From positions 70,124 to 134,123 of the forward strand of contig CAWBYV010000020.1 of the NCBI GenBank assembly GCA_963793115.1: a stretch of DNA of 64,000 nucleotides. The letters are read 5' to 3'. Source of the DNA: an uncultured delta proteobacterium. GTDB lineage: Bacteria > Desulfobacterota > Binatia > Binatales > Binataceae. A program made the translations under genes and the position numbers. Positions 11,745 to 59,715 of the stretch are shown here, in pieces (positions within the stretch are counted from its first letter, which is position 1; the number at the start of each line of letters is the position of its first letter). Under the pieces are notes generated by a model. That model was not told where the DNA came from, searched no databases, and was given only the letters and a program-made list of their open reading frames with translations.

Positions 11745-11867
11745 AAGCTTCTCCAATTCCGCGCGTTTGGGCGCGGCGCAATAGTTGTGCGGGAATGCAG
11801 AGATACCTATGCCGATCCGGCTCGGGCCGGTCAACAAAAGCGGGCGAGGGCCTGAACGCCTCGCCCG

Positions 11868-11918
11868 CCTCACCCGCGTCGCTCCGCGTCCTCTCCCGCA
11901 ACAGAGGGGAGAGGTGAG
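11868..11918. repeat. REP-like palindromic element copy
   Basis: CCTCACCCGCGTCGCTCCGCGTCCTCTCCC-gcaacaga-GGGGAGAGGTGAG. It has the same head and CCTCTCCC/GGGAGAGG core as the other copies. Confidence 0.65.
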
Positions 11919-12315: not shown

Positions 12316-14218
12316 ATGGCCAAGCGCATAATCCACATCCTGCCGGAACAGGTCGCCAGCCAGATTGCGGCGGGCGAAGTGGTCGAGCGGCCCGCTTCGG
12401 CCGTCAAGGAGCTGGTGGAGAATTCGCTCGACGCGGGCGCGAAATCGATCAGCGTCGAGATTGCCAAAGGCGGATGCGACCTGCTCAGCGTCGCGGACGA
12501 CGGATGCGGGATGGGCGCGGAGGACGCGATCCTCTCGATCCGCCGCCACGCGACCTCGAAAATCCGCGACGCTTCCGACCTGACTGCGATCCGCACGCTC
12601 GGTTTTCGCGGCGAAGCGCTGGCCTCGATCGCGAGTGTCGCGCGGCTTTCGATGGGCACGCGCCGGGCTGGTGATCCAGATGGAGCCGAGCTGACGATCG
12701 TCGGCGGCGAGATCGAAACAGAACCGCATCTGTGCGATGGCGCCGGGGACGCGAATCGAGGTGCGCGACCTGTTCTTCAACACCCCCGCGCGGCTCAAAT
12801 TCCTCAAAACCGTGGCGACCGAGCAGGGCGCGATCGCGGAGGCGATGCAGCGCCTCGCGCTCGCCAATCACGGCGTCGCTTTCTCATTGTCGGCCGACGG
12901 GCGCGTGCTTTTCGATCTGCCGCGTGCCAGTTCTCTGATCGAGCGGATACGCCAGCTTTTCGGCGCCAAGCTGGCGGCCCGGATGGTGCCCTTCGAGAGC
13001 GTACGGCCTGAGATGCGCGTAAGTGGGTTTGCGTCGCTGAGCCAGGAGTCGTTCCCGACCTCGCGGATGTTGTTCACGTTCGTCAACCGGCGCTCGGTGC
13101 GGGATCGCGTTCTGATGCGCGCGACGGCGCAGGCCTACGAGACGCTGCTGCCGCGCGGACGCCATCCGGCGGTTGCCCTGTTCGTCGAGCTCAGGCCCGA
13201 CGACGTTGACGTGAACGTGCATCCGATGAAGACCGAAGTGCGCTTCAAGCGCGCCGGCGCGGTATTCGAGCTGGTCTTCCATGCGCTGCGCGATCGGCTC
13301 GCCGATCAGACGCTGGCGGGTGCCGGCGGCGCCGCGCAATCCGGTGTGCCCGCGCAGGCGGCGATCGTGCCGGAGTCGTCAGGTGTCGCGGCGTCCGCCG
13401 CGACGCCCGACGACTCCGCTGGCGCATCCGTCACGCCCGCCGGAGCTGCCACGACAGGCGCCTCGGGCGCAGGCGGGCGCGACGCATACGCGTCGCGCCC
13501 GCTGCGCCTGGTTCCCGACTCGCGATCGCCGGCGCGCGCCGAGCAGCGCGCGCTTGGCCTCGGCTACAGCGGCACGGGCGCGGCGGCCGTCCCGGCAGAG
13601 GCGCCCGTGCCGTTTGCTTCCGCCGCGCACGCGATTCCGCTTTATTCCCGCTTGCGGATCATCGGACAGATCTTCGCCGGGTACATCGCACTCGAAGGCG
13701 AAGACGGATTGATCCTGGTCGATCAGCATGCGGCGCACGAGCGGGTCACTTTCGAGAGACTTCGCGCGGAGCTTCGCTCGGGCAGCATCAGGACGCAACA
13801 GATGCTTGCGCCCGAAACGATCGAACTCGATCCAGCCCGCGCTGCGCAAGTTCAAGCCGCGCTTCCGGAGCTGCGCGCGCTCGGTTTCGAGCTCGAGCCG
13901 TTTGGGCCGACGACGATTGTGCTCAAGGGCACGCCGGCGGTTTTCGGCCCTGAGGGCGGTCCAAGACTGCTCTCTGATATGATTTCCAGCATGGGAGAGA
14001 GCGGATTCGGACTTCGCGGCGAAGCGGCGTTCGAGGATTTGCTCAAGCAACTCGCCTGTCACGGCTCGGTTCGCGTCGGCCGCTCGCTTCAGGAACATGA
14101 GATTGTGGAGCTGCTCGCCGATCTCGACCGAACCCGGTTCAAAACCAACTGCCCGCATGGACGCCCGGTCCATATCGAGTTTCGACGCGGACAAATCGAG
14201 CGCATGTTCCGCCGATGA
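12316..14218 (+). CDS. mutL: DNA mismatch repair protein MutL (one frameshift near 12733)
   Basis: N-terminal GHKL ATPase motifs ([42 protein letters not shown]) lie in ORF 12292..13011. The protein continues in ORF 12737..14218 ([21 protein letters not shown] ... C-terminal dimerisation domain with DQHAAHERV and CPHGRP). Confidence 0.9.
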
Positions 14219-43477: not shown

Positions 43478-45419
43478 ATGTCCGACGGAAACGGCAACGC
43501 TTTCGAACAGGTAATCAAGACAGACCGGGCGGCGCGCGAGTCCAGGCAGTGGCGGGGTGCACTGTTGGAGTATCTCGAGCGGGTCAAGTCGGATCCGCTG
43601 GCCACCAAGCTTTCTCACGCCCGTATCTACGACCTGATCATCTCGTCGGGAATGCGCGACATTCACGACAGCGACGATGCGCGCACCAAGCGGCTGTACA
43701 AGGACGAAACGCTCAAGGTCTACAACTTCTTCGCCGATGAGTTCTTCGGAATCGAGCGGACGATCGCGCAGATCGTACGCTACTTCCATTCGGCGTCGCT
43801 CAAGGGCGAGGAGAGCCGGCAGGTGCTCTACCTGATGGGTCCGGTCGGCTCGGGCAAGAGCTCGCTGGTCGAGCGGTTGCAGCGCGGGCTCGAGCAGTCG
43901 CATGCGGTGTACGCGATCGATGGATGCCCGATGCACGAGGAGCCGCTCCATCTGATTCCGCGCCATCTGCGGCGCGAGTTCGAGAAGATGCTCGGGGTGC
44001 ATATCGAAGGCGATCTCTGTCCGGTCTGCCGCTATCGGCTGAAGGAGGAGTTCGGCCAGCGCTACGAGGAGTTCCCGGTCGTCAGCCGCAACTTCTCCAA
44101 GCGCAACCGGACCGGAATCGGCGTGGTGCCCCCGGTCGATCCGAACAACCAGGACACTTCGGTGCTGATCGGGTCCGAGGACATCTCGAAGCTCGATCAA
44201 TATTCCGAGGGCGACCCGCGCGTGCTGGAGCTCAACGGCGCGCTCAACGTCGGTAATCGCGGCCTGGTCGAGTTCATCGAGGTGTTTAAGAACGAGACCG
44301 AGTACCTGCACGCGATGATCACCGCCACGCAGGAAAAGGTGATTCCGGCGCCGGGGCGCCATGGGATGGTCTACGTCGAACGTTTGCATCGTGGCCCATT
44401 CCAACGAAGCCGAATGGCAGAAATTCAAGGCCGACCACACCAACGAGGCAATTCTCGATCGAATCGTGGTGGTGAAGGTTCCCTACAACCTGCGGCTTTC
44501 GGAAGAGGTCAAGATTTACCAGAAGATCATCCGCCACTCCGACTTCCGCGCGCACGTCGCGCCGCACACGCTGGAGCTGGCCTCGATGTTCGCGATCCTG
44601 TCGCGGCTCGAACCGACCTCGAAGTGCGACCTGATGACCAAGCTGCGCCTCTACAACGGCGAGGAAGTGGTCGAGAAGGGACGCACCAAGAAGATCGACG
44701 TGCAGGAGCTCAAGGAAGACGCCAAACGCGAGGGCATGTCGGGCATCTCGACCCGCTTCATCATGAAGGCGCTCGACAACGCGCTTTCCGACAACGCGTC
44801 GGGCAACTGCATCAATCCGATCAATGTCCGCGAGGCGCTGATCTCGATGACCAAGGAGGCCGACCTGCCCGACGACACGCGCAAGCAGTATCTGGAGTTC
44901 CTGCAGGACACGCTCCACAAGGAGTACCTGGAGCTGCTCGAGAAAGAGATCACGCGCGCTTTCGTCTACTCCTATAAGGAGCAGGCCGAGTCGCTGTTCC
45001 AGAATTATCTCGACCACGCCGAGGCTTACGTCAACAAGACCCGGGTGCGCGATCGCAATACCAAGGAGGAATTGCCGCCCGACGAGGGGTTCCTGAAGTC
45101 GATCGAAGAGCAGATCGCGATTATCGGCTCGGCGGCCGACGGTTTTCGCCAGGAGGTGATCGCCTATCTGTGGTCGGCGTCGCGCCGCGGCGAAAAGATC
45201 AGCTATCGCAGCTACGAGCCGCTCAAGGAGGCGATCGAGAAAAAGCTGATGACCTCGGTGCGCGACATCTCGCGGATCATCACCAAGGCGCGGACTCGTG
45301 ACGAAGAACAGGGCGAGAAGTACGGCGCGATGGTGAAGAACCTGCTCGAGAACGGCTACTGCGAATCGTGCGTGGACGTGGTGCTCAAATACGCCGCAAA
45401 CAATCTGTGGAAGGATTGA
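43478..45419 (+). CDS. prkA: PrkA/YeaG family serine protein kinase (AAA+ N-domain), one frameshift near 44380
   Basis: Strong SD (AAGAGGAG) 6 nt upstream of ATG 43478. P-loop LMGPVGSGKSSL and GLVEFIEVFKNETEYLHAMITATQEK lie in ORF 43478... The protein continues with VAHSNEAEWQKFKADHTNEAILDRI in ORF 44361..45419. Confidence 0.9.
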
Positions 45420-45430
45420 TGCAGGCGCCG

Positions 45431-45456
45431 CACCTCTCCCTGGTCAGGGAGAGGTG
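45431..45456. repeat. REP-like hairpin CACCTCTCCCTG-GT-CAGGGAGAGGTG
   Basis: Near-perfect 26-bp palindrome 12 nt after the prkA stop. It has the same CCTCTCCCTGGTCAGGGAGAGG core as 60623-60646. It may also act as an intra-operon attenuator or terminator. Confidence 0.65.
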
Positions 45457-45517
45457 TAGGAAAGAGAACTTGCCGGGCGTAAGGGGATTATAGTCAGTTG
45501 CGGATGGGGATCAGGTA

Positions 45518-46726
45518 ATGTCCACCAACGAGACCATCTTTCGCGAGTATCGCCCCTCCGACGCCGAGCGCTCCGATCGTTCCGCCGGCGACCGCCTGCG
45601 CCATCGGCAGAAAGTCCGCGAATCGATCCGCGAAAATATCGCCGACATCATCGCCGAGGAATCGATCATCGGCAAAGACCGCGACCGCGTAATCAAGGTC
45701 CCGCTGCGCGGGATCAAGGAGTACCGCTTTGTCTTCGGCGAGAACGCCCCCGGCGTCGGCCAGGGCGACGGCAACGCGCGCTCCGGCCAGGTGGTCGGCA
45801 AAGTCGGCAAGGACGGCCGCGGCCAGGGCGACGACCAGGCCGGCGATCGCCCCGGCGTCGATTATTACGAGACCGACGTCACGCTCGAAGAGCTGATCGA
45901 AATCATGTTCGAGGACCTGGAGCTGCCCAATCTCGAACGGCGCGCGCTGCGCGAGATCGAGGCCGAGCGCTCGAGCAAGCGCAAGGGCTATCGCCACGTC
46001 GGAATCCGCGTCCGGCTCGACAAGCGGCGCACCGCCAAGCAGCGCGTGATGCGCAAGCTTGCGAGCGTCAAGCAAGCCAGCGCCGAGCCACCCGATCCGG
46101 TGCAGGCGTGGGAGCCGCGCCGTTTCCCGTTCCATCAGGACGACTTGCGCTACCGTCACGTCGAAGTCGAGACCCGCGAGGAGTCCAACGCCGCGGTGAT
46201 CTGCATCATGGACACTTCGGGCTCGATGGACACGATGAAGAAGTACCTGGCGCGGAGCTTCTTCTTCCTGCTCTATCAGTTCATCTCGACGCGCTACCGC
46301 AACGTCGAGATCGTCTTCATCGCGCATCACACCGAAGCCAACGAGGTCACCGAAGAGGAGTTCTTCCACAAGGGCGAGTCGGGCGGGACCTTCATCTCGT
46401 CGGGATATTTGAAGGCGCTGGAGATTATCGCCGAGCGGTACCATCCATCGCTCTGGAACCTGTACGCTTTCCACTGCTCGGACGGCGACAACTTCGATTC
46501 CGACAATCCGGCCGCGCTCAAGGCCGCGCAGGAACTGGCCGAGCTGAGCAATCTGTTCGGGTATGGCGAGATCAAGCCGCTGGGATCGCGCTACTACGAA
46601 TCCTCGATGCTGAACGTGTTCCGCAAGCTCGAAGCGCCCAATTTTCATACCGTGCTGATCGAGCGCAAGGAGGACATCTGGCCGTCGTTCAAGGCATTCC
46701 TGGCCAAGGATCGCATCAAGGAATGA
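45518..46726 (+). CDS. yeaH: YeaH/YhbH family protein (DUF444, vWA-like)
   Basis: Intact 402-aa ORF with RHRQKVRESIRENIADII, IKVPLRGIKEYRF and the MIDAS-like ICIMDTSGSM. It holds the canonical position between prkA and spoVR. Confidence 0.88.
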   Translation: MSTNETIFREYRPSDAERSDRSAGDRLRHRQKVRESIRENIADIIAEESIIGKDRDRVIKVPLRGIKEYRFVFGENAPGVGQGDGNARSGQVVGKVGKDGRGQGDDQAGDRPGVDYYETDVTLEELIEIMFEDLELPNLERRALREIEAERSSKRKGYRHVGIRVRLDKRRTAKQRVMRKLASVKQASAEPPDPVQAWEPRRFPFHQDDLRYRHVEVETREESNAAVICIMDTSGSMDTMKKYLARSFFFLLYQFISTRYRNVEIVFIAHHTEANEVTEEEFFHKGESGGTFISSGYLKALEIIAERYHPSLWNLYAFHCSDGDNFDSDNPAALKAAQELAELSNLFGYGEIKPLGSRYYESSMLNVFRKLEAPNFHTVLIERKEDIWPSFKAFLAKDRIKE

Positions 46727-46750
46727 GCCCGGATCGAGGAATGAGCCCGG

Positions 46751-48182
46751 ATGGCTAACTACGAGCTCGAGCGAACTCGTCGAATGGGACGAGAAGATCC
46801 GCGAGAAGGTCGCGGAGTTCGGACTCGACTGCTATCCGCAGGAGTTCGAGATCTGCGACCACACCGGGATGCTCGGGTACATGGCGTACTAGCGGGATGC
46901 CGTCGCATTATCCGCACTGGTCCTACGGCAAGGCCTACGAGAAGCTCAAGACGCTCTACGATCACGGCGTCAGCGGCTTCCGTACGAGATGGTGATCAAC
47001 TCCAACCCGGCGATCGCCTATCTGATGCGCGACAACACGCTGCTGCTCCAGATTCTCACCATCGCGCACGTATACGGGCATAACGACTTCTTCAAGAACA
47101 ATTTCACCTTCAGATCGACCCGCGCCGACCTGACGATCGAGACCTTCAAGGCCCACGCGCTCAGGATCCGCCGCTATATCGAGGATCCGTCGATCGGAAT
47201 CGACAAGGTCGAGCGCGTAATCGACGCCGCGCACGCGCTCTCCTGGAACTGCCGGCGCAACCTCGCGATCAGAAAGCTTGATCGCGAAGCGCAGATCCAG
47301 CGCGCGATCGAGGCTTCGCAGCCCCAGCCCGATCCCTTCCGGCGAATCCATCGGCGCCAGGAATTCAAGGAGCCCAACGTCTTCAAGGTGCCGCTCGAGC
47401 CCGACGAAGACGTCCTGCTCTTCATCCGCGATCACAATCCGTTCCTGGCCGAGTGGGAAAAGGACCTGCTCACGATCGCGGACGAGGAAGCGAAGTATTT
47501 CCTGCCCATGATGGAAACCAAGATCATGAACGAGGGCTGGGCGAGTTACTGGCACAAGCGGATCGTCGAGTCGCTCGACCTCGAGCAGGGCCTCCACCTG
47601 GAGTTCATCGTGCGCCACAACCAGGTGGTGCGGCCGATTACGGGCCAGATCAATCCGTATCATCTCGGACTCAGGATCTGGGAGGACCTCTATCGCCGCC
47701 ACACCAATCCCACGCCCGAAGAGCTGAAACGCGACGGGCCGCCGGCCAAGTCGGGCGACCAGAAAATCTTCGAGGCGCGCGAAGTCGAACGCGACGCCTC
47801 CTTCATCCGCCGCTACCTGACCGAAGAGCTGATGCGCGAGATGGACATCTTTCAGTACGAGGCGCGCGGCGAGGACCTGGTGATCGGCAAGGTCTCCGAC
47901 GACGAAGGATGGCGCGACGTGAAGGAGACCCTGATCAACGATGTCGGCACCAATTCGATCCCGGTAGTCAAGATCGAGGACGCGGACTTCGGCCAGAACC
48001 GCACGCTCTACCTGAAGCACAGTCACGACGGGCGCGACCTGCACCTGGAGTATGCCGAGAAGACGCTGGCCTATATCCACCGGCTGTGGGGCCGCGAGGT
48101 GGTGATCGAGAGCACGCTCCAGAGCAAGCGCACGCTGCTATGCTACAACGAGCGCGGGTTCTCGATGCGCGCCCTCAAATAA
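46751..48182 (+). CDS. spoVR: SpoVR/YcgB family protein (at least three frameshifts in the first 250 bp)
   Basis: The N-terminal pieces ELVEWDEKIREKVAEFGLDCYPQEFEICDH, SGMPSHYPHWSYGKAYEKLKTLYDHGVSG and LPYEMVINSNPAIAYLMRDN lie in three different frames, with breaks near 46770, 46892 and 46977. The rest is intact in ORF 46989..48182. Confidence 0.85.
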
Positions 48183-48761: not shown

Positions 48762-49667
48762 TTACGCGAAGTACTCTTCCGCGCCGATCGTCGGGATCGC
48801 CAAGCTGTAGACCTGATTGTTGCGCAGCACCGTGAAGCTGATTCGGTCGCCCGGGAGATGCTTCAGCAGCGTGTCGTACAGCATCCGGCGCTCGCTGATA
48901 TCGTGGCCGTCGGCGGCCAGCAGCACGTCGCCCTGCTTGAGTCCCGCCTTTTCGCCCGGCCCGCCGGGCATCAGGCCGGCGATCACCACGTGCTCGCGCA
49001 ACGTGTAGGAAAGTACGCCGAGCCAGGCCTTTGGCGTGGTGACTCGCTTGCCGTGCTGGATCAACTCGTCGCGAGCCTGCAGGAAGCATTCAGCGGGGAT
49101 TCCAAGCACCGAGCGCCCGATATCGACGAAGTTCAGGTATGAGGCCGCGACCATCTGGCCCCGGGAGTTGCAGATCGGGCCGCCACTCGAGGCGACGTTC
49201 ATCGCCGAGGTCATCATGCACACCGACCGCTCCAGCACGAACTCCCACACCGCGTCGAATGGCCCGAGATAGCTTATGACTCCACAGTCGGCGCATCGCT
49301 GGTCAGCGCCCGAGCTGGTGACGATGAAGACTTCCTGTCCGAGCGCGCATTGGGCGGAGGAGACCACTTCAAGGTGCGGCAGGTTGCGGTGATCGATCTT
49401 GAGCAGCCCGATTCCCGTCCGGTAATCCTGTGCGACTACCCGGGCCTGCATCTGCTCGCCGTTGGACAGCGCGACGATCACGTTCCGCGCCCCCATCACG
49501 AGGTAGTAAACCGTCAGGATTACCCCGTCGGAGCTGACAATCACGCCGGTGCCGCGGCGGTCGGTGCCCAATCCGATAGTGGCGGAAACGTGATCGGACG
49601 GTACATAGGCATGCACGCCCACCGTCGCGGCGCATACCTTCTCCAGCACATGCACGCTCGCATTCAC
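48762..49667 (-). CDS. HtrA/DegS-like trypsin-fold + PDZ protein with degenerate catalytic triad
   Basis: 301-aa ORF with no signal peptide. It aligns by eye to DegS/DegP blocks: GTGVIVSSDGVILTVYYLV (Tyr where the catalytic His sits), DYRTGIGLLKI (Gly where the Asp sits), ASSGGP (Ser retained). The C-terminal PDZ-like GLMPGGPGEKAGLKQGDVLLAADG is present. Confidence 0.65.
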   Translation of the reverse strand: MNASVHVLEKVCAATVGVHAYVPSDHVSATIGLGTDRRGTGVIVSSDGVILTVYYLVMGARNVIVALSNGEQMQARVVAQDYRTGIGLLKIDHRNLPHLEVVSSAQCALGQEVFIVTSSGADQRCADCGVISYLGPFDAVWEFVLERSVCMMTSAMNVASSGGPICNSRGQMVAASYLNFVDIGRSVLGIPAECFLQARDELIQHGKRVTTPKAWLGVLSYTLREHVVIAGLMPGGPGEKAGLKQGDVLLAADGHDISERRMLYDTLLKHLPGDRISFTVLRNNQVYSLAIPTIGAEEYFA

Positions 49668-49822: not shown

Positions 49823-50227
49823 TTATTTGGTCGGCGCCGGCGTCTGGGCGAGCTCGTTGGCGCGCATCGTCAGGAGTTGCACCGCCGAGCCCAAGTCGAG
49901 CTCGCTGTACTTGCGGTTGGCATACAGGTCGTCCAGGCGCTTGACCACGTCATCGGGCTTGAATTCCGAGACCGACAGCTCGGAGCCCAGTTGCCGGATT
50001 ATCTTCTTCGCGCCCTTCCAATGGAACAACTCGGCCGCGACCGTGAGATTGTCGAGCTTGCCGAGGCTCACCTGCATCGCATCGGCATAGCCGTTGACAT
50101 AGCCGGACTTGGCTGCGGGATTGAGCCGGCCCCAATAAAGGCCGTTGTGCTCAGCCACGGTCGCGCCCACCGCGACCACCCAACCCGCCAGCAACCCGAC
50201 CACCACGCCAGCGCTGAACTTTTTCAT
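49823..50227 (-). CDS. hypothetical exported protein
   Basis: 134-aa ORF with an N-terminal hydrophobic segment MKKFSAGVVVGLLAGWVVAVGA. No family recognised. Confidence 0.45.
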   Translation of the reverse strand: MKKFSAGVVVGLLAGWVVAVGATVAEHNGLYWGRLNPAAKSGYVNGYADAMQVSLGKLDNLTVAAELFHWKGAKKIIRQLGSELSVSEFKPDDVVKRLDDLYANRKYSELDLGSAVQLLTMRANELAQTPAPTK

Positions 50228-50474
50228 GATTAAGCGGACTCCCCGCTTTTCTACACATCCAGTATGTCTTGCAGTACGTCTTGTATCAGAAGCCGGTTAC
50301 ACACAAAAGATGCCGCGCCGCCGGATTCATGAAAAATGTCCACAAACGCGACGTTTGCGTCGGCTGGGAGACCAGAAGACCCCGACGCGGGCGCCTTGTG
50401 GCTGAGGCGCGGGATTGAATCGCCGGTCGCGGCAATGCGATCATCGCACAGTCATTCTCTCCCACCGCGCTGAG

Positions 50475-51602
50475 ATGTCAATCTGGAAGGAAGTTCTGGG
50501 CTTTATTGAACGGCCCGACATGGCGGCCTTCGAGCCGCTCGCGCTACGCGTCTTCTGGCATCAGTATGACGCTATAGGCTCCTACCGCGACTACTGCTTG
50601 GAGCGCGGCTTCGGCCCCGAGCGGGTCCGTTCGATCGACGACATCCCCGCGATCAGCACGGTCGCCTTCAAGTATGCGGAACTCGCGAAGCCGCCCGCCG
50701 AGCGGGTCTTTGTCACCAGCGGAACGACGATCGGCCCGGTCGAGCGGGGACGGCATTTCGTCCCGAATCTGGAAGTCTACCGCGCCTCCGCGTTGGGCCA
50801 TCTGGCGCCGATGCTCTTTCCCGATCGCGCCAGGACTGAAGTTGGGATTAGCATGCTTGTGCTCCATCCCACAGCAAATCTTATGCCCGAATCATCGTTG
50901 GCCCAGATGCTGAGCTGGTGCGTGGAGAAGTTCGGCGACGGACGCACGCTCTGCGCTGCCGACCGCAATGGCGTCAACGTGGCGGAGGCGCGCTCTTTCC
51001 TCGGCCAATTGGCCCGCACCGGCGCGCCGGTATGCATCCTGGGCACGACGGCCGCGCTGGCCCGGATGCTCGCGACGATTGCTGCCTCCGATGCTCCGAT
51101 TCGCTTGGCCGCGGGCTCGCGAGTCATGGATACCGGCGGCGCCAAGGGGCAGGCGAAGCCGCTCGAAGCTGGCGAGTTGATCGCGCTCGCCGAACAATGG
51201 CTTGGAATTCCCCCACCCTTGGTAATCAACGAATACGGGATGACCGAGATGTGCTCGCAGCTCTACGACTTGACGGCTTTCAACTCCCGAGGCCGCGATG
51301 CCGCCCCAATGCGCGCCTCTGGCGGGCGTCCGAAGCTGGGCCCGCCCTGGTTGCGGGCCGCCGCGGTCGATCCGGTGACACTCAAACGTGTTCCCGACGG
51401 CGAGGCGGGGCTGCTTTCCTTCTTCGATCTCGCCAATGTCGGGTCGGTGTCTGCTTTGATCACCGAAGACTTCGGTATAGTCGAAGGGCGCGAGGTGTTC
51501 GTCCTGGGGCGCGCCAGCCGTGAGGCTCGCGGATGCGCGCTCGGAGTCGAGGAATTCGCCGCGATCGAAAACGCCAACGCCGACGCTGACCGAATCGCAT
51601 AG
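50475..51602 (+). CDS. LuxE-family acyl-protein synthetase / acyl-adenylate-forming enzyme
   Basis: ATG 50475 lies inside ORF 50415..51602. The LuxE-type N-terminal signature FEPLALRVFWHQYDAIGSYRDYCLERG ... IPAISTVAFKY ... VFVTSGTT is present, with later DTGGAKG and NEYGMTE blocks. Confidence 0.8.
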   Translation: MSIWKEVLGFIERPDMAAFEPLALRVFWHQYDAIGSYRDYCLERGFGPERVRSIDDIPAISTVAFKYAELAKPPAERVFVTSGTTIGPVERGRHFVPNLEVYRASALGHLAPMLFPDRARTEVGISMLVLHPTANLMPESSLAQMLSWCVEKFGDGRTLCAADRNGVNVAEARSFLGQLARTGAPVCILGTTAALARMLATIAASDAPIRLAAGSRVMDTGGAKGQAKPLEAGELIALAEQWLGIPPPLVINEYGMTEMCSQLYDLTAFNSRGRDAAPMRASGGRPKLGPPWLRAAAVDPVTLKRVPDGEAGLLSFFDLANVGSVSALITEDFGIVEGREVFVLGRASREARGCALGVEEFAAIENANADADRIA

Positions 51603-51613
51603 CGTGATCTCTC

Positions 51614-52867
51614 ATGACTAGCCAAAACTTGACTAGCCGAGGTCCTGTGCTGAGCGCGGAGGCTTCGGGCCGCCACGCGCTCGCTGGCTCGACGCTCGCG
51701 TTAGCCCGGCTCCGCGAAACCCTTCGCCAGACGATCTCTCGGGATCGAATTGCGGCGGCACTCTCGCTGACGTGCGAGCGATGGCGTAGCCGAAGCCTCG
51801 AGGCCCGCCGCGAGACTATGTCGCTTGCGGCCCGCGCGTCTGGCTTTTCACCCGCCCTGCTGGACGAATCGCTCGACGCGCTGCTGAAACCGTTCCATCC
51901 TGCGGCCTTCGAGTCGCTCGCGGCGAAGCTCGCGACACGCCCGCAACTGCTCGGCTTCATCATGCCTGGCAACATCATCGGAGCAGGACTGCACGAGGTC
52001 TGCCAGGCTTTGATTGGCGGCGCGGCGATCGTGCTCAAGACCTCCAGTGGCGAGCCGCGCTTCTTTGCGGCGTTGGCCCGGACGCTGCGCGAGATTGACG
52101 CGCAAGCCGGCTCGCGTATCGCGGTCCTGAATTGGAGCCGCGTGAACACCGATCGGACCGCCGCGATGATGCAGGCGTGTGACCGGGTGGTCGCATTCGG
52201 CGCCGACGAATCGATCGCGGCGCTGGATTCCGGCCCCGGCCTTATCGCATTCGGCAGCCGCGCCAGCGGCGCGCTGGTCGCGCTGGATTGCGGTGGGATC
52301 GCGGTGGCGGACCTGGTCGCGCGCGACGTAGGGCTGTTCGAGCAGCGCGGATGCCTGTCGGCCCATCATGTGTTCGTAGAGGATTCGCGCGCCGGCGTAG
52401 CCCGCGATTTTGCCGCGCAACTGGCCGCTGCGCTCGATCGGTTCGCGAAGCAGTTCCCGCCGCCGATCGCATTGCCCCTGCAAGCGGCGGCCGCCATCCG
52501 CAGCGCGCGGGAGAACGCCCGATGGCGGCGGCTTGGCGGACGCGACGTTGCGATGTGGGAAGGCGAGCGTCTGGGATGGACGGTGATCTACGACGGCGCC
52601 GCCGGGTTTCGGCTCTCGCCCGGCAATCGCACGGTCTACGTTACGCCGTTCCGCAATCTCGCCGATCTTGGCGGCCGTCTCGCGCACGCGGCGGGGCGAC
52701 TCGAAGCATTCGCGATCGCAGATTCGTCGGGCCAGCTTTCCGACGCGCGAGCACACCTTAAGAGTATCGGCGTGTCGTACCTCGCCGTGCCGGGCGAGCT
52801 GCAATCGCCGCCGCTGGAATGGCGCCACGGGGTCGGCGCGTTGCTCGATCTCTTCGTCGCGCGATGA
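51614..52867 (+). CDS. LuxC-family acyl-CoA/acyl-protein reductase (aldehyde-forming)
   Basis: Intact 417-aa ORF starting 11 nt after the LuxE-like stop. ALDH-like fold blocks present: IMPGNIIGAGLHEVCQALIGGAAIVLKTSSGEP, VVAFGADESI, and a candidate catalytic Cys in FEQRGCLSAHHVFV. Confidence 0.75.
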   Translation: MTSQNLTSRGPVLSAEASGRHALAGSTLALARLRETLRQTISRDRIAAALSLTCERWRSRSLEARRETMSLAARASGFSPALLDESLDALLKPFHPAAFESLAAKLATRPQLLGFIMPGNIIGAGLHEVCQALIGGAAIVLKTSSGEPRFFAALARTLREIDAQAGSRIAVLNWSRVNTDRTAAMMQACDRVVAFGADESIAALDSGPGLIAFGSRASGALVALDCGGIAVADLVARDVGLFEQRGCLSAHHVFVEDSRAGVARDFAAQLAAALDRFAKQFPPPIALPLQAAAAIRSARENARWRRLGGRDVAMWEGERLGWTVIYDGAAGFRLSPGNRTVYVTPFRNLADLGGRLAHAAGRLEAFAIADSSGQLSDARAHLKSIGVSYLAVPGELQSPPLEWRHGVGALLDLFVAR

Positions 52868-54096
52868 GCGCTCCAACCGAATCGTTTGCCGAATCCTCTC
52901 CCGAACTCTTTCGCCGGTTTCTCGCACAGACCTCGGGTTTCCCGCTCGGTCTCGAAATCGTTCGCGCGGAGGGTTCGTGGCTCTACGCCGCCGACGGCAA
53001 ACGCTACCTCGATTTCATCGCGGGAATCGGCGTCACCGCACTCGGCCACGGCCATCCGGCGGTGCTGAGCGCGATCGAATCCCAGATGCGCCGTCATCTG
53101 CATGTGATGGTTTATGGCGAGTACGTGATCGAAGCGCAGGTCGCGCTGGCCCGGCGCCTCGCCGCTCTGCTGCCGCCGCGCCTCGGCCGCGTGTACTTCA
53201 CCAACAGCGGCGCCGAGGCGATCGAGGGCGCGCTCAAGACCGCGCGCAAATATACCGGCCGGCGCGAGTTCGTAGCCTTCGACGGCGCCTATCACGGCGA
53301 CACGATGGGCGCGCTCGCGCTGTCGGGGAATCCGGCCTTCCGCGCTCCGTTCGAGCCGCTGGCCGGTCCGGTGCGCCATCTCCCGTACGGAGATTCAGAC
53401 GCGCTGGACGCGATCGGCCGCGAGGTCGCCGCGGTCGTGATCGAGCCCGTGCAAGCGGAAGGCGGCGTCAGGATTCCCGGCGCCGATTTCGTCCGGGCGT
53501 TGCGCGAGCGATGCGACCGCACCGGCGCGCTGCTCATCTTCGACGAAGTTCTCACCGGTTTTGGCCGTACGGGCCGGCTTTTCGCGCTCGAACACTTCGG
53601 AGTCGTGCCGGATCTGATCGTCCTTGCCAAAGCACTCGGCGGCGGTTTGCCGCTCGGCGCATTCTGCGGCCCCACCGAGATTCTGCAAACGCTCGCGCAC
53701 GACCCGCCGCTCGGCCATATCACGACCTTCGGCGGCCATCCGCTTTCCTGCGCTGCGGGTCTCGCCAGCCTCGATGCGATCGTCGCAGAGCGGCTCTGGG
53801 AGCGCGCGAGCGCCGTCGGCGCAACGATCGTCACACGGCTTGGGTGCCTGGCCGGCGATGAGATTGCCGCGCTACGCGGAATCGGCCTGCTGATCGGGAT
53901 CGAGTTCGCTTCAGCCGCGATCGCGCGTCGCTTCGTCGCCGAGACCGTCGCGCGGGGTACCGTTGTGAACTGGACGCTGAACGCCGATCGCGTCGTGCGG
54001 CTCGCGCCGCCCCTAACGATTCGCGATGACGAGGTCGATTTCGCGCTTGCCTCGATGACCGAGGCGCTCGCAGCCGTCCGCAGGGCGAGAGCATGA
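52864..54096 (+). CDS. class-III PLP-dependent aminotransferase (acetylornithine/omega-aminotransferase-like)
   Basis: ATG 52864 overlaps the LuxC-like stop (ATGA). Blocks GIGVTALGHGHP, FTNSGAEAIEGALK, IFDEVLTGFGRTG and the PLP-lysine motif LAKALGGGLPLGA are present. Confidence 0.85.
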   Translation: MSAPTESFAESSPELFRRFLAQTSGFPLGLEIVRAEGSWLYAADGKRYLDFIAGIGVTALGHGHPAVLSAIESQMRRHLHVMVYGEYVIEAQVALARRLAALLPPRLGRVYFTNSGAEAIEGALKTARKYTGRREFVAFDGAYHGDTMGALALSGNPAFRAPFEPLAGPVRHLPYGDSDALDAIGREVAAVVIEPVQAEGGVRIPGADFVRALRERCDRTGALLIFDEVLTGFGRTGRLFALEHFGVVPDLIVLAKALGGGLPLGAFCGPTEILQTLAHDPPLGHITTFGGHPLSCAAGLASLDAIVAERLWERASAVGATIVTRLGCLAGDEIAALRGIGLLIGIEFASAAIARRFVAETVARGTVVNWTLNADRVVRLAPPLTIRDDEVDFALASMTEALAAVRRARA

Positions 54097-55061
54097 GCAG
54101 GCTGCCCGGAGAGTTCGACGTTATCGCGCGGCTCACTGCGGACTTGCGCTTAAGCCGCCGCGTGATTCTCGGCCCCGGCGACGATTGCGCGATTGTCGCG
54201 CCGGGCCGCAAGCCCCAACTGTTCACGATCGACTCGATGGTCGAGGGCGTGCACTTCAAGCTCAAGTGGGGATCGCCGCGGATGCTCGGCGAGCGGGCGC
54301 TGGCCGTAAATCTGAGCGACATTGCCGCGATGGGCGGGTATCCGACCGCATGCGTGGTCAATCTGGCGCTCCGGCGCGGCTTGCCGATGGAAACGGTAGA
54401 CGAGTTGTTCAGGGGTCTCAAGGCCTCGGCGAGAGCCGCGGGTGTCGATGTAGCCGGCGGCAATATCACCAGCGCGGCGCAACTGGCGATAACGATCGCG
54501 ATGCTCGGCGAGCTGCGCGGCGCGGCGCTCAGGCGCGACGCCGCCCGCGTCGGCGATGAGATCTACGTTACCGGCACGCTCGGCGACGCCGCCGCTGGAT
54601 GGCGGATCCTGGAGGGCAAGCTCAAGGCGGCAGGCTCGCATCGCAAGTTCCTGGCCGCGCGATTTTTGAGGCCGGCCGCGCGCCTCGAGGCGGGTCAGGC
54701 GTTGGCTCGAATACGTCCGGCGCCGGCCGCGATCGATGTCAGCGACGGGTTGTTGCAGGATCTCGGCCATATTCTGGAGCGCAGCGGTGTGGGCGCGGAA
54801 ATCGATCCCGGCGCGATTCCAATCTCGCCGGCGTACAAGTCGGTGATGCGCGGCGAGATCGACTTGGCGCTCACCGGCGGCGAAGACTACGAGTTGCTTT
54901 TCTGCATCCGGCCCGGTAGTTCGGAACGCGAACTGACCGCCCGATTGGGCGTTGCGGTCCGGCGAATCGGTGTAATCGTTCGCGGCCGCCCCGAAATTTC
55001 ATTAGTCGGTACCCACCCGCGACGATTGCCCATTCGGCGCGGATTCGATCAGCTCAGGTAG
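54093..55061 (+). CDS. thiL: thiamine-monophosphate kinase
   Basis: ATG 54093 overlaps the aminotransferase stop (ATGA). Blocks GEFDVIARL, GPGDDCAIV, DSMVEGVHF, LAVNLSDIAAMGG, GGNIT and TGGEDYELLF are present. Confidence 0.88.
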   Translation: MSRLPGEFDVIARLTADLRLSRRVILGPGDDCAIVAPGRKPQLFTIDSMVEGVHFKLKWGSPRMLGERALAVNLSDIAAMGGYPTACVVNLALRRGLPMETVDELFRGLKASARAAGVDVAGGNITSAAQLAITIAMLGELRGAALRRDAARVGDEIYVTGTLGDAAAGWRILEGKLKAAGSHRKFLAARFLRPAARLEAGQALARIRPAPAAIDVSDGLLQDLGHILERSGVGAEIDPGAIPISPAYKSVMRGEIDLALTGGEDYELLFCIRPGSSERELTARLGVAVRRIGVIVRGRPEISLVGTHPRRLPIRRGFDQLR

Positions 55062-55074
55062 TGCGAGACCGCCG

Positions 55075-56289
55075 ATGCTGATTCAACTGCTTTTGCCCCT
55101 GGTCAGTGCGCTGCTGTTCGTGAGCGCCTTGCTCGCAGCCTCAGAGACCGCGCTGTTCGCGCTGGTCAGGATGGAGCACACGCGCGGCACTCTGTCGGCG
55201 AGCATCACGCGCGCGCTCGATCGCCTGATGCGCCGCCCGGCGGAGTCGCTGATCGTCGTGATCGGCTTGAACGAGGCGGCCAACGTATGCGCCGAATGTC
55301 TTGCCACCTCGCTGCTGCTGCTGTGGCTGGGTCCGGTCGGCGCTTACGTCTCGGTGCCGGTGATGTTCATCCTGGTGTTGCTGATCGCCGACATTACGCC
55401 CAAGACGCTCGCGCTCGGTTTTCCCGGCGCGGTGGCCCGGATCACCGCGCGTCCGCTGGCGGCGGTGGCGGAGGCCGTTCATCCCGTGATCCGCGTTTTC
55501 GCGCCGAGCGGACCGGTGCCGCAGCCCGAGGCGGTTTCGGAGGCGGAATTCAAGGCGCTGCTGCGCCTGGGCGAAAGCCAGGGCAGGTCGAGCCGGCGGA
55601 GCGCGAGATGATCCACAAGGTTTTCGACTTCGGCAATCGCCGCGTGCTCGAGGTGATGACGCCGCGCGACCGGATCTTCTGCCTCGATATCGATACGCCC
55701 GGCGAGCGCCTGGCCGCCGAGGTCGCTCACGGCCACTTTTCGCGCGTGCCGGTCTATCGCCATCGCCGCGACAACATCATCGGGGTCCTGCACGTCAAGG
55801 ACCTGGTTGCCCGGCGCCTCGAAGCCGGCAATCCGCGCCTGGAGCGCCTCATCCGTCCGCCTTCTTTCGTGCCGCTGCGCAAGCCGCTGGCTGAACTGTT
55901 CGACGAGATGCGCCGCAGCCGGACGCGGCTCGCGCTGGTGGTTGACGAATACGGGAAGTTGCAGGGGCTGGTGACGCTCGAAGATCTGCTCGAAGAATTG
56001 TTCGGTGAAATCCGCGACGAGTTCGATATCGAAGGTCCGGAGCTGAGCCAGGTGGCCGACAGACGAATGGCTGGTGTCGGGAGCGATCGAGATGCGCAAG
56101 CTGCAGGAGAGCTGATCGGCGATGGTTTGCCGGCGGCAAGCGATGGCGGGCAGACCCTGTCCAGCCTCGTGCTGCGGCGCCTCAAGCGGGTGCCCGCGCG
56201 CCTGGCGATCGTTTCGGGCTCGGCGACTGCAGGCGACGGTCGAGCGGGTGCGCGGCGCCACCGTCGAAGTGGTGAGGCTCAAGCGATGA
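55075..56289 (+). pseudogene. CNNM/CorC-HlyC family protein (DUF21-CBS-CorC), about 5 frameshifts
   Basis: The DUF21 N-terminus (LAASETALFAL) is in ORF 55075..55611. ERE MIHKVFDFGNRRVLEVMTPRD and the CBS pair are in ORF 55287... The C-terminal pieces DEWLVSGAIEMRKLQE, QTLSSLVLRRLKRVPAR, PGDRFGLGD and LQATVERVRGATVEVVRLKR lie in alternating frames, with breaks near 55591, 56061, 56110, 56200 and 56230. Confidence 0.75.
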
Positions 56290-57589
56290 CCGCGCTCGAG
56301 TGGCGGCCGCGGTCGCGGCCTGCGTGATCTGGTGCAGGCGTTTTTCGCCGCCAGCGAAATCGCGCTGGTATGCGCCGACGAAGTCAAGCTGCGCGCCGGG
56401 AGCGAGCGCGGCGAGGCGCGACTCGCGCCTGCTCTCGGGCCTGCTCGCAGCGACGCGATCGCCTGCTCGCGCTGGTGCTGACGAGCAACAATCTGGCCGA
56501 CCGTGATCGCCGCGGCGATCCTGACCAGTTTTCTCTACGCGCTCGAGCCCGCATCTCGGTCTGCTCGCGCCGTTGATTCTCGCGCCGTCTGACGCTGGTG
56601 CTCGGCGAGGCGCTGCCCAAACTGCTCGCGCTCAGGCGCCCGCTCGGCTTTCGCGCGCGTGGCCGCGCGGCCGCTCAAGCTGCTCGCGACGGCGCTCGCG
56701 CCGCTGCTCGCGATCGAGACCGCGCTCAGCCGCTGCTTGCGCCGGCTGGCCGGCGTCCCGCCGAAGTGCGAGAGCGTGTTCATGACGCCGCGAGGATCTC
56801 GCGCTGCTGGCTGCGAGCGCCAGGGCAGCGGCGCGCGGGCCGGGCGCGACGCGATCCTGCCGGCCGAGCAGCAGATGATCAGCCGCATCTTCCGCTTCTC
56901 CCACTCCGAGGCGCGCAAGGCGATGGTGCCGCTGGTCCGGGTCGAGGCGGTGCCCGACGACACCACGCTCGCCGCGCGCGATCGAAGTCGTCGCGGCGCG
57001 AGGGCTTCACGCCGCCTGCCGGTGTTCCACGAGCGCGATCGTCGACATCATCGGCGTGGTGCACGTCTTCGATCTGCTCGAAGCGCCCGACCTGAGCCGC
57101 CCGGTCAGCGAAGTGATGCGGCCGGTCAGCTATTTTCCCGAATCGACGCCGCTCGACGAGATTCTGCTCGCGCTCCAGCGCACCGGCGAGAACATGGCGG
57201 TGGTGGTCGACGAATACGGCGGCGCCGGCGGGAATTATTGACCATCGAGGATCTGCTCGAAGAGATCGTCGGCGAGATCGAGGACGAGTACGACGTCGCG
57301 CGAGGAGCTGGCCCGCGTGGTCGATCTCGCGAACGCTGCGGTTGTGCGCGCGCGCCGCGATCGCGGAATTCAACGAACGCTTCGGCGCTCAGACTTCCCG
57401 AGGGCGATGAGTATGCTACGATCGGCGGGCCTGGTGGTGGAGCGGCTCGGCCATATTCCCAAACCCGGCGAACAGCTCAAGGTCGGCGACCTGACGATTA
57501 CGGTGCGCGCGGCGGACGCGCGCGCGGTGCGCGAGGTGATGCTTCAACTCGCCCGGCCGCTGCGGTCCGAATCCGCCCGCCGGCGATGA
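56286..57589 (+). pseudogene. second CNNM/CorC-HlyC family protein, many (about 8-10) frameshifts
   Basis: Recognisable fragments are scattered over all three + frames: AFFAASEIALVCADEVKLRAG, LTSNNLA, LGEALPKLLAL, PAEQQMISRIFRFSHSEARKAMVPLVRVEAVPDDTTL, IIGVVHVFDLLEA, ENMAVVVDEYGG, IEDLLEEIVGEIEDEYD, GLVVERLGHIPKPGEQLKVGDLTITVRAADARAVREV. The start overlaps the upstream stop (ATGA). Confidence 0.7.
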
Positions 57590-58328
57590 CCGAGGAGCGG
57601 ATCCGCGAAATTCTGGGCCGCGTTGCGTCGCGGCCGGACCAGCGCGGACGCGGCGCTCGAAGCGCTGCGCCATCTGCCCTTCGAGGATCTCGGCTTCGCC
57701 AGGCTCGATCGCCATCGCAGCGCTGCGCCGCGGCGTTCCCGAGGTGGTTTTCGGCGAAGGGAAAAGCGCGGCGCAGATCGCGGCGATCGGCGCCCGTGTG
57801 GTGGCCTCGGGCGACAACCTGATCGTCACGCGACTTGCCGCCCGACAAGGCCCGCGCCCTCAAGCGCAGCCTGCGCACGCTCGACTATCGCGCCGAGGCG
57901 CAACTCGGCATGATCGTCGAAGCGACCGCTTAAGACCCGCGGCCACGGAACCGTGATGGTGATCAGCGCCGGGACTTCGGATCTTCCGGTGGCCGAAGAG
58001 GCGGCGCTGTGCGCCGAGGTCTTCGGCAATCGCGTCGAGCGGCTTTACGACGTCGGCGTCGCCGGACTCCATCGCCTGACGGCGCAACCTCGAATCGATC
58101 AAGTCGGCGAGCGTGCTGATCGTGGTCGCCGGGATGGAAGGCGCGCTGCCGTCGGTGGTCGCCGGGACTGCTCGACAAGCCGGTGATCGCGGTTCCGACC
58201 AGCGTCGGCTACGGCGCCGCATTCGGCGGCCTCGCGGCGCTGCTCGGGATGCTCAACACCTGCTCGAGCGGAGTGACGGTGGTGAATATCGACAATGGAT
58301 TCGGCGCGGCGCTCGCCGCCACCTTGAT
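57586..58328 (+). pseudogene. larB: LarB-like nickel-pincer-cofactor biosynthesis protein (AIR-carboxylase fold), several frameshifts
   Basis: Fragments [108 protein letters not shown] and [44 protein letters not shown] lie in different frames. The 3' end is approximate. Confidence 0.65.
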
Positions 58329-58386
58329 AAACCGGGTTGGAGAGCCAAACCGCTCGGAGAAACCTCGCGGGAATCCGCGCGGCGTG

Positions 58387-59715
58387 ATGGCCGAAGCGCC
58401 AAGCGCGAACTCACCAGCGGCCGCGCACGGCGCGCGATCAAGATCGGCGAGCTCGCCTCGCAGGTCGGTTCCAGCTACCTGTGGACCTCGATTCGCAGGC
58501 CGTTCCTTACCGCGCACGCGCGCGAGCGCGAGCTGCTCGACGCGCACATCAAGAACGCCCGCCGAATCGTCGAAGGCTCGACGCATCTGCGCGGCGCGTT
58601 CCTGAAGCTTATCCAGATGCTCTCGATGCGCGAGGACTTGCTGCCCGGCCGAGGCGCTCGAAGTGCTCAAGGCGACCCGCTCGGGCGTGCCGCCGATGGA
58701 CTACGCGACGATCGCGGAGCAGATCCGGCGCGGAGCTGGGCAGGCGGCCGGAGCATCTGTTCGCCAGCTTCGAGCAGACGCTTTCGCCGCCGCCTCGCTC
58801 GGCCAGGTCCATCGCGCGCGGCTGAAAAGCGGCGAGGAAGTCGCGGTCAAGGTCCAGTATCCCGGCGTGGACGACACCGTCGAGCAGGACCTGAAGAACG
58901 TGAAGCTCCTGCTCAGGACCTTCCAGGGGATCGCGCGCGACCTGATGCGCCAGAAGGTCGATACGCGCGCGCTCTACAGCGAGCTTCAGGAGCGCCTCAG
59001 AGAGGAGCTCGACTACGTCAACGAGGCGCGCAACATGACGCTCTTCGCCCGGCTGCTCGCCGACGACGACGAGATCGTGATCCCGCGGCCATGCAAGGAA
59101 CTGTGCTCGCGGCGCGTCCTGACCATGACTTACGTCGACGGCTATGAGCTCAGCGACGTGCTCTCGCCTGGCACCGACGAAGAACTGCGCCGATGGGTCG
59201 CCCTCAAGTACTTCAAGCTGGTCTGGCGGCAGATCTTCGAGTTCAGCGTGGTGCACACAGACCCTCATCCGGGCAACTACCTGGTGAGCTATCATCCGCG
59301 GCTCGGGATCCTCGATTTCGGATCGGTCCGCCGCTTCGGCGAGCCGGTGCGGCAGGCCCATCTGCAATTCGCCCACGCGCTGCTCGACAACGACGCGCGC
59401 TCGATCGGCGGCGCACTGGTAAAGCTCGGCTATCTGGATCGTGACGACGATCCGGCGCCGATGGTCGAGATCGTGCGAATCCTGTTCGAGCCGGTGATGG
59501 TCGAGGGAGTCTTCGATCCAAAGGAATACGATTCGGTCGCGAAGGCAACCGCGGTCGGCGAGATCGCGTTCGGCACAAGCTCTACAAATCGCCGCCGCAC
59601 AGCGTGTTTCTGCTGCGCGCGCTGATCGGGATGGAGGGGATCATCCGCGGGCTCGGCGATCCCGGGCGACTACCGCTCGATTTTCCGCGAATGCGTCGAA
59701 GCGGTCGCCGCCTGA
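58387..59715 (+). pseudogene. ABC1/UbiB (AarF) atypical kinase family protein, several frameshifts
   Basis: Fragments [92 protein letters not shown] and LYKSPPHSVFLLRALIGMEG lie in at least three frames. The stop TGA is at 59713-59715. The start is tentative. Confidence 0.7.

Follow-up and report, generated by a model that had tools for sequence, protein, structure and literature searches.

A LuxE-like synthetase, a LuxC-like reductase and a class-III aminotransferase form a conserved gene trio in Binatia and probably a carboxylic acid-to-amine pathway

The DNA analyzed here is a 64,000-nucleotide stretch of contig CAWBYV010000020.1 from an uncultured member of the Binatia (Candidatus Binatota), and this whole stretch is referred to as the window. 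It carries four intact and tightly packed chromosomal genes on the plus strand, the first three of which encode a LuxE-like protein, a LuxC-like protein and a class-III aminotransferase. We consider it probable, on the sequence evidence laid out below, that these three proteins constitute one dedicated pathway that would convert a carboxylic acid into a primary amine. The four genes are arranged as follows:

50475..51602, plus strand: LuxE-like acyl-protein synthetase (375 aa, stop codon TAG)
51614..52867, plus strand: LuxC-like acyl-thioester reductase of the aldehyde dehydrogenase superfamily (417 aa, start codon ATG)
52864..54096, plus strand: class-III pyridoxal phosphate (PLP)-dependent aminotransferase of the LuxEC-linked clade (410 aa)
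54093..55061, plus strand: thiL, thiamine-phosphate kinase (TIGR01379)

An 11-nt spacer separates the LuxE-like from the LuxC-like gene, the LuxC stop codon overlaps the aminotransferase start (ATGA, 52864-52867) and the aminotransferase stop codon in turn overlaps the start of thiL (ATGA, 54093-54096). The reading frames, junctions, overlaps and coordinates had been proposed in an earlier, sequence-only reading of this DNA, and all were borne out by our inspection of open reading frames (ORFs) and sequence. For the LuxE-like gene, the ATG at 50475 is the likely start codon, since conservation among 71 orthologs begins exactly there and not at the upstream TTG at 50415.

The same reading had assigned the first two proteins to the LuxE and LuxC families, and this assignment stood. 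The LuxE-like protein matched Pfam LuxE (PF04443; 48.3 bits, E = 8.7e-13, cut-off 24.9), with the AMP-binding family staying below its own cut-off, and the LuxC-like protein matched Pfam LuxC (PF05893; 138.8 bits, E = 3e-40); both keep the catalytic cysteines. The only significant PDB sequence match of the LuxE-like protein was LuxE (7XC6_E, 1.3e-15) from the LuxC-LuxE complex of Photobacterium phosphoreum (PDB 7XC6), with which the window pair shares both protein families and the fold. As in that LuxE, the protein consists of the adenylate-forming N-terminal domain only, without the ANL C-terminal subdomain, and it carries the adenylate-forming motifs TSGTT (residues 81-85) and YGMTE (residues 254-258). 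Its C-terminal tail holds SREARGCAL with Cys354 (nt 51534-51536), a putative acyl acceptor, and fits the motif 358-TRxxKGCxLS-367 described for the LuxE tail, in which Cys364 bears the acyl group (PMC9157457). A flexible tail with an acyl-carrier cysteine in the pattern [ST]Rxx[KR]GCxL is thus common to both systems. RGCAL was present in all 75 covered Binatia LuxE orthologs, and the RGC motif also in LuxE-LuxC fusions and in all out-of-phylum LuxE partners. Lys224 (within TGGAKG) and Arg346 are invariant in our alignment A6 and lie near the positions expected for Lys238 and Arg355 of P. phosphoreum LuxE, both being left uncovered by the pairwise alignment with 7XC6_E. An AlphaFold2 model of moderate confidence (predicted local distance difference test score, pLDDT, of 69; shallow alignment) had a PaaK-like fold (template modeling (TM) score of 0.55), with the tail at residues 349-375 disordered (pLDDT <50).

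For the LuxC-like protein, the AlphaFold2 model reached high confidence (pLDDT 93.4), and Foldseek returned 7XC6_A, the LuxC of the same complex, as its best PDB match (E = 6.3e-19, TM score of 0.77), five orders of magnitude ahead of any other aldehyde dehydrogenase (9e-14 or worse). The putative catalytic Cys247 (nt 52352-52354, in FEQRGCLS) aligns with the catalytic Cys296 of 7XC6_A in a phmmer alignment spanning residues 116-260 only. It is invariant in 67 diverse LuxC-like sequences, and the cysteine motif recurred in 80 out of 80 Binatia loci and in all outgroup LuxC proteins. Unlike these shared features, overall identity to LuxC of 7XC6 is about 16%, and the window protein is about 60 residues shorter. 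Scores against the NCBIfam equivalog models for bioluminescence stayed far below the cut-offs, at 48.2 bits against 750 for the LuxC-like and 64.4 bits against 550 for the LuxE-like protein (NF052244/NF052251 set). Judged by sequence, both proteins are to be regarded as family members, not as orthologs of the lux-operon enzymes. In an exhaustive profile search, scores fell sharply after the Binatia orthologs, and a large family of 944 clusters (50% identity) followed at E <= 1e-30.

The third protein matched Pfam Aminotran_3 (346 bits, E = 2.7e-103). Its closest characterized sequence relatives are ArgD and LysJ, with 37% identity to Escherichia coli ArgD; the best PDB match was Thermus LysJ/ArgD (1VEF, 295 bits), the next group E. 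coli putrescine aminotransferase (276 bits), and the model of the PigE aminotransferase domain matched with 299 bits. Active-site residues were read from an alignment (A3) with E. coli ArgD, PatA, GabT and BioA. The window enzyme keeps the PLP lysine (Lys256, nt 53629-53631), Asp227, which contacts the pyridine nitrogen, and the Arg379/Glu199 pair for glutamate/2-oxoglutarate, the Arg379 equivalent being missing only from BioA in this alignment. At the position held by arginine in E. coli ArgD (R144), AstC (R141), GabT (R141) and OAT (R180), the window enzyme has Asp146 (nt 53299-53301, in YHGDT); the same column holds K183 in PatA and D147 in BioA. In acetylornithine aminotransferase (AcOAT), ornithine aminotransferase (OAT), GABA aminotransferase (GABA-AT) and AstC, this arginine forms a salt bridge with the substrate carboxylate, and its replacement in PatA has been linked to a preference for non-carboxylated diamines (PMC4244111, PMC3590144). 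YHGDT was found in 78 out of 78 Binatia aminotransferase orthologs, and HGD[TS] in all six out-of-phylum LuxEC-linked aminotransferases examined.

In the same line, the LuxEC-linked aminotransferases form one clade in a neighbor-joining tree, apart from the ArgD/GabT (HGRT) and PatA clades and sister to a clade with HGST or HGNT; this tree and that of LuxC were built without support values. The best NCBIfam ArgD models stayed under cut-off (378.6 against 457 for NF002874 and 360 against 410 for TIGR00707). Because these cut-offs are missed, the clade is separate and Asp146 stands in place of the carboxylate-binding arginine, the enzyme is, as far as sequence tells, not a canonical ArgD. All hits of a homolog search with the aminotransferase were orthologs with 73% identity or more. 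The sister clade is a large group of class-III aminotransferases with YHGST or YHGNT (metagenome loci L100-L142) that are 40-47% identical to the window enzyme and lie largely on low-G+C contigs. Their neighborhoods are heterogeneous, with no LuxE or LuxC, no conserved neighbors and no arg genes, and we therefore rejected this clade as a functional clue.

According to alignments and structural models, the cysteines of a LuxEC-type thioester relay and the residues expected for PLP-dependent transamination are all present. In the mechanism that we propose, the LuxE-like protein would adenylate the acid with ATP, yielding an acyl-AMP, and would load the acyl group as a thioester onto its own C-terminal Cys354. 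Cys247 of the LuxC-like protein would then receive the acyl group from the flexible LuxE tail; there NAD(P)H would reduce the thioester and the aldehyde would be released, and the class-III aminotransferase would finally turn the aldehyde into a primary amine. Glutamate is the likely amino donor, since Arg379 and Glu199 are retained. The first three steps are modeled on the characterized LuxEC complex (PMC9157457, PMC12041015) and on the conserved residues, and the adjacency and occasional fusion of the two genes are likewise consistent with a complex. The window trio differs from the luminous systems in that it comes without luxA/B, LuxD or LuxG, and that its aldehyde would go to the aminotransferase, not to luciferase.

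To assess conservation, we scanned one genome per species, which yielded 80 loci of 21 kb, all from Binatia and one per metagenome-assembled genome (MAG). Where a Binatia species locus extended at least 1.3 kb on either side of LuxC, the trio was complete in 71 cases out of 72 (tblastn). In about 27 loci, roughly one third, both flanks are wholly rearranged and yet the trio is intact; glutamate synthase or other genes then lie upstream, and major facilitator superfamily (MFS), molybdopterin oxidoreductase or ABC genes downstream. A 4-nt overlap of stop and start codon is the commonest LuxE-LuxC junction and is also common at the LuxC-aminotransferase junction, and in some Binatia LuxE and LuxC are fused into a single polypeptide of 716-724 aa. 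Among the fetched Binatia loci, the aminotransferase is single-copy.

The linkage extends beyond the class. In a sample of the nearest non-Binatia members of the family recovered by the profile search, the gene order is aminotransferase-LuxE-LuxC in NC10/Methylomirabilota and LuxE-LuxC-aminotransferase in Nitrospiria and on Logan contig L090. Three related MAG contigs labeled 'Deltaproteobacteria' carry LuxE-LuxC-aminotransferase-SCP2, LuxE..LuxC-aminotransferase-SCP2 and LuxE-LuxC..aminotransferase, respectively, with the SCP2 (sterol/lipid carrier) gene directly 3' of the aminotransferase gene in two of them (L176:8591-9223 and L178:8565-8888, overlapping it in L178). Apart from SCP2 in this one lineage, no conserved extra partner genes were found beside the non-Binatia trios; the flanking genes in each lineage are unrelated housekeeping genes (prfB, lnt, ybeY, SpoU methylase, panB, folD, queG). 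Identity to the window proteins is 24-33% for LuxC outside Binatia and 52-56% for the six out-of-phylum aminotransferase partners with full-length sequences. Complementarily, a metagenome scan seeded with LuxEC-linked aminotransferases gave 80 class-III aminotransferases of 34-65% identity. Six of the eight with HGD[TS] adjoin LuxC, and LuxE too where the contig reaches that far (L095, L096, L098, L099, L102 and L174), as opposed to none of the 72 with HGS, HGN, HGR or HGK (Fisher p = 9e-8); 31 HGRT enzymes were all without LuxEC nearby. L099 provides a further LuxE-LuxC fusion. The sequence-only reading had asked whether the three-gene adjacency is conserved; it holds in unrelated lineages, where it occurs in two gene orders and also with fused genes. 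As the linkage is kept across divergent lineages amid unrelated flanks, a pattern expected of a functionally coupled unit, we take the trio to be one.

Several observations weigh against a single dedicated pathway. Across the Binatia loci, the aminotransferase has a median identity of 73% to its window counterpart, versus 55% and 47% for the LuxE-like and LuxC-like proteins, and such slow evolution is as expected of an enzyme that might have an important role of its own. In one Binatia MAG (L002; contig CAWBJH010000001.1, 6000-12250), the aminotransferase (81% identical) persists ahead of the kinase described below and thiL, but LuxE is missing from the 4 kb upstream and LuxC is 5'-truncated, beginning at residue 83; either the module has decayed or the assembly is at fault. 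Two loci of the metagenome scan, L097 and L106, carry HGDT aminotransferases without LuxC upstream and, together with L002, indicate that the aminotransferase can exist without the LuxE/LuxC pair. Conversely, four sampled non-Binatia LuxE-LuxC pairs (L087, L088, L089 and L177), that is half of the sampled outgroup pairs, have no aminotransferase alongside. They comprise a Phycisphaerae fusion, a Chloroflexi pair and two further contigs, and their LuxC proteins interleave with those of the trios in the LuxC neighbor-joining tree. SCP2 adjoins the trio in one related lineage only. Finally, the samples from Binatota, Methylomirabilota and Nitrospirota may be partly dependent and may reflect ancient vertical descent rather than repeated selection; selection on the linkage finds support in the altered order of NC10, in the fusions and in flanks that are unrelated.

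Two of these loci deserve a remark of their own. An apparent LuxC-aminotransferase fusion in L002 was rejected as an artifact of an out-of-frame ORF. In the Chloroflexi MAG (L177:1-1529), the LuxE-like protein is apparently fused to a zinc-type alcohol dehydrogenase (ADH_zinc_N + LuxE), and the LuxEC pair is followed by a xanthine/uracil permease in place of the aminotransferase. This locus suggests that the products of other LuxEC pairs enter different reactions, perhaps reduction of the aldehyde to an alcohol.

With respect to the substrate of the proposed acid-to-amine pathway, the replacement of the carboxylate-binding arginine by Asp146 suggests that the aldehyde is probably one without the free carboxylate of N-acetylglutamate, glutamate, aminoadipate, aspartate or succinate semialdehydes. 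Weak hints make conversion of a fatty (hydrophobic) acid into an alkylamine the leading single candidate, followed by conversion of an omega-amino acid into a diamine. A hydrophobic substrate is hinted at by the LuxEC precedent, the characterized complex reducing a C14 fatty acid (PMC9157457), by the dodecylamine-forming TabE/TabA system discussed below and by the SCP2 gene after the aminotransferase in one lineage. Housekeeping genes surround the module, which nearly all Binatia carry in a single copy; this favors a core metabolite or an envelope component over a strain-specific natural product.

Among the alternatives, we regard it as unlikely that the aminotransferase is the lineage's housekeeping acetylornithine (or succinyldiaminopimelate) aminotransferase, with LuxE/LuxC acting as an independent fatty-acid reductase that shares its operon. 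This explanation draws on the ArgD/LysJ-type best NCBIfam and PDB matches of the enzyme, on its high conservation and single copy among the fetched loci with housekeeping flanks, on its retention without LuxEC in L002 and L097, and on the name 'acetylornithine/N-succinyldiaminopimelate aminotransferase' that JGI gives to orthologs. On the other side, PGAP calls the orthologs only by the generic 'aspartate aminotransferase family protein', and the enzyme falls below every ArgD cut-off, has Asp146 instead of the arginine that binds carboxylates in AcOAT, AstC, OAT and GABA-AT (PMC4244111, PMC3590144) and groups apart from the HGRT ArgD/GabT clade. Moreover, no arg gene lies beside the trio in any locus with annotated neighbors, and several phyla show LuxEC next to the aminotransferase, in different orders, whereas all 31 HGRT enzymes lack LuxEC nearby. 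The case for an aminotransferase doubling as the lineage's ArgD is accordingly reduced.

Formation of a diamine from an omega-amino acid also appears improbable. The trio would then run the PatA/PatD route in reverse with ATP, from 4-aminobutyrate via 4-aminobutanal to putrescine, or its beta-alanine or 5-aminovalerate homologs, with Asp146 as the binding site of the distal ammonium group. Judging from the alignment, an acidic side chain at that end of the substrate would suit a cationic group, a role as core metabolite would fit polyamines, and the E. coli putrescine aminotransferases are the second-best structural relatives of the window enzyme (276 bits). However, PatA has lysine and not aspartate at this position, the LuxEC-linked aminotransferases do not cluster with PatA, no polyamine genes lie nearby and the characterized LuxEC acts on hydrophobic acyl chains (PMC9157457). 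As for 1,2-diamines, Asp147 of BioA lies in the same HGDT motif and presumably recognizes a vicinal amino group; a 1,2-diamine product is speculation only.

Still less likely is a non-canonical amino-acid pathway, in which LuxE/LuxC would replace ArgB/ArgC, ProB/ProA or LysZ/LysY on the side chain of an (N-acyl)glutamate or alpha-aminoadipate and the aminotransferase would yield (N-acyl)ornithine or lysine. The chemical logic is that of ArgB/ArgC/ArgD and LysZ/LysY/LysJ, as the sequence-only reading had proposed, the best PDB match is a LysJ/ArgD enzyme (1VEF, 295 bits), and the core, single-copy, housekeeping character of the trio in Binatia would fit. The semialdehydes of such pathways, however, keep an alpha-carboxylate that is bound by arginine in all characterized relatives, and every LuxEC-linked aminotransferase examined has aspartate instead, which disfavors an amino-acid semialdehyde as substrate; neither LysW, argJ, argF nor other pathway genes were present in any locus with annotated neighbors. 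Very improbable, lastly, is a catabolic direction, in which the aminotransferase would deaminate an amine to the aldehyde, LuxC would oxidize it to the thioester and LuxE would release the acid, possibly with ATP formation: aldehyde dehydrogenase-family and adenylate-forming reactions should be reversible in principle, but every characterized LuxEC works reductively, driven by ATP hydrolysis (PMC9157457, PMC12041015), and no conserved transporter or regulator typical of catabolic operons lies beside the trio.

Acid-to-amine conversion by the trio has relatives in known systems. The closest precedent, likened by description and not by sequence, appears to be fatty-amine synthesis by TabE/TabA, which together with the acyl carrier protein (ACP) TabQ make dodecylamine in the alkylamine branch of tambjamine BE-18591 in Streptomyces (bioRxiv 10.1101/2025.08.11.669332). 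TabE is an acyl-thioester reductase of the aldehyde dehydrogenase superfamily that its authors place in one sequence-similarity cluster with LuxC, and TabA is a class-III omega-transaminase that turns the aldehyde into a primary amine with glutamate or alanine as donor (bioRxiv 10.1101/2025.08.11.669332). Unlike the trio, TabE/TabA use an ACP-bound acyl chain without a LuxE-type activator and belong to an actinomycete cluster for specialized metabolism; the trio stands alone amid housekeeping genes and occurs almost throughout a whole class. TamA/TamH (tambjamine YP1; PMC9594044) and PigE (prodigiosin) likewise combine thioester activation, NAD(P)H reduction and class-III transamination, but rely on adenylation-ACP activation and on a thioester-reductase domain of the short-chain dehydrogenase/reductase type that is fused to the transaminase and unrelated to LuxC, and they are found in natural-product clusters.

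The order of carboxylate activation, semialdehyde reduction and class-III transamination is also that of ArgB/ArgC/ArgD and LysZ/LysY/LysJ, which employ an acyl-phosphate kinase and a GAPDH-like reductase unrelated to LuxE/LuxC; in contrast to ArgD and LysJ, the window aminotransferase lacks the carboxylate-binding arginine (Asp146) and lies outside the ArgD clade. Cascades of a carboxylic acid reductase (CAR) and an omega-transaminase achieve the same ATP/NADPH-driven conversion of acid via aldehyde to amine overall. CAR, however, is a single multidomain A-PCP-R enzyme that needs phosphopantetheinylation, and these cascades are engineered, whereas the trio is a natural operon with a two-protein cysteine-relay reductase. 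In the literature searched, we found no description of a stand-alone LuxE-LuxC-aminotransferase operon with its own aminotransferase clade, single-copy and in housekeeping context across Binatota, Methylomirabilota, Nitrospirota and uncultured lineages related to them. The sequence-only reading had been aware of no described pathway with these genes: the exact combination was indeed not found, but to call it unprecedented would be overstated, as TabE/TabA, TamA/TamH and PigE share its logic. The chemical logic is already known and the mechanism unsurprising; what appears to be new is the conserved stand-alone operon.

The fourth gene of the window cluster, thiL, is a bystander. Its product contains AIRS/AIRS_C domains (Pfam) and scores above the equivalog threshold of TIGR01379 (275 bits, cut-off 184.15). 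The gene lies within the fetched flank in 45 of the 80 Binatia loci, in most of which a histidine-kinase gene of about 436 aa separates it from the aminotransferase gene. Direct adjacency is confined to the window and its closest relatives (L001, L004, L005, L006, L012 and L049), all without the kinase, which appears from this distribution to have been lost in them. Every non-Binatia locus examined lacks thiL beside the trio. Membership of thiL in the module, as the sequence-only reading had it, was therefore rejected, the association being lineage-specific, interrupted by the kinase and absent outside Binatia; in the lineage of the window, thiL is merely co-transcribed, with translational coupling to the aminotransferase gene. 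The kinase, a multi-pass membrane histidine kinase (HisKA + HATPase_c), is encoded directly after the aminotransferase and overlaps thiL by 4 nt (L009, L025 at 12470-13780, L081 and about 60 other Binatia loci), and no response regulator was seen beside its gene.

Upstream of the trio, the window holds two further features:

49823..50227, minus strand: small secreted protein (134 aa, with a hydrophobic, signal-like N-terminus), divergent from the LuxE-like gene
50228..50474, no strand: divergent intergenic region of 247 bp, the presumed site of the promoter(s) for the LuxE operon and for the divergent small gene

The small secreted protein matches no Pfam family. Its cluster was recovered from 67 Binatia loci, the ones with rearranged flanks among them, and a hidden Markov model (HMM) built from the Binatia copies found no homolog next to non-Binatia trios. 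We class it as a conserved neighbor particular to Binatia, of uncertain membership in the module. The secreted protein and the histidine kinase were both rejected as universal partners, as the Binatia HMMs matched only one distant histidine kinase, in L090. In the intergenic region (50228..50474), Rfam gave no match to a thiamine pyrophosphate (TPP) or other riboswitch, and promoter and terminator scans performed no better than shuffled controls, yielding only one weak sigma-70-like site on the minus strand.

The remaining window is ordinary chromosome with a G+C content of about 64%, its nearest relatives being MAGs of Candidatus Binatia/Binataceae. It carries glnA, mutL, miaA, accA, pheA, hisC, tyrA, rpsA, an opp-type transporter, prkA-yeaH-spoVR and pnp. 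The prkA/DUF444 (yeaH)/spoVR stress operon (43478-48182), which is common to the closest Binatia relatives L001 and L004, lies upstream of an HtrA-like protease gene (48762-49667, minus strand). Compared with intact orthologs, five conserved neighboring genes are split by frameshifts over two or three frames:

43478-45419: PrkA
55075-56327: CNNM/CBS/CorC transporter
56353-57586: CNNM/CBS/CorC transporter
57632-58341: AIRC-domain gene
58395-59451: ABC1/UbiB

The splits point to indel errors in a draft assembly, probably one from long reads; pseudogenization is less likely.

The locus is not a lux operon. No luxA/B/D/G product was detected among those of all genes within about 7 kb and of about 35 larger window ORFs, so that the absence of these genes claimed in the sequence-only reading holds for every product scanned, and no luciferase-family gene occurs in the annotated neighborhoods of related loci. 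The sole luciferase-like protein of the window (10758-11873, minus strand) is encoded 39 kb away and was rejected as LuxA, being an F420-type oxidoreductase of the luciferase-like monooxygenase (LLM) type; it matched F420-dependent LLM oxidoreductase subfamilies best, narrowly missing their cut-offs.

Beyond the acid-to-amine reading itself, a more far-reaching and tentative proposal is that the trio may represent the first physiological, non-bioluminescent role of a LuxE-LuxC cysteine-relay carboxylate reductase, a core function retained vertically in Binatota, Methylomirabilota and Nitrospirota that would yield a primary amine (such as a long-chain envelope alkylamine, or a vicinal or terminal diamine) with a co-evolved clade of HGD[TS] aminotransferases. 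If the acid-to-amine reading itself holds, it would provide a function for a very large set of unannotated, non-luminous LuxC/LuxE homologs (the 944 clusters), and would predict a new amine metabolite, made by almost all Binatia and also by NC10 and Nitrospiria, environmentally important and largely uncultured groups. It would also add a natural, compact acid-to-amine cascade that works without phosphopantetheine and is of interest for biocatalysis. For automatic annotation, HGD[TS] versus HGR[TS] offers a simple marker that parts LuxEC-linked aminotransferases from true ArgD. Together, these findings make the trio a well-supported, testable lead to an amine metabolite and to the function of many orphan LuxC/LuxE homologs.

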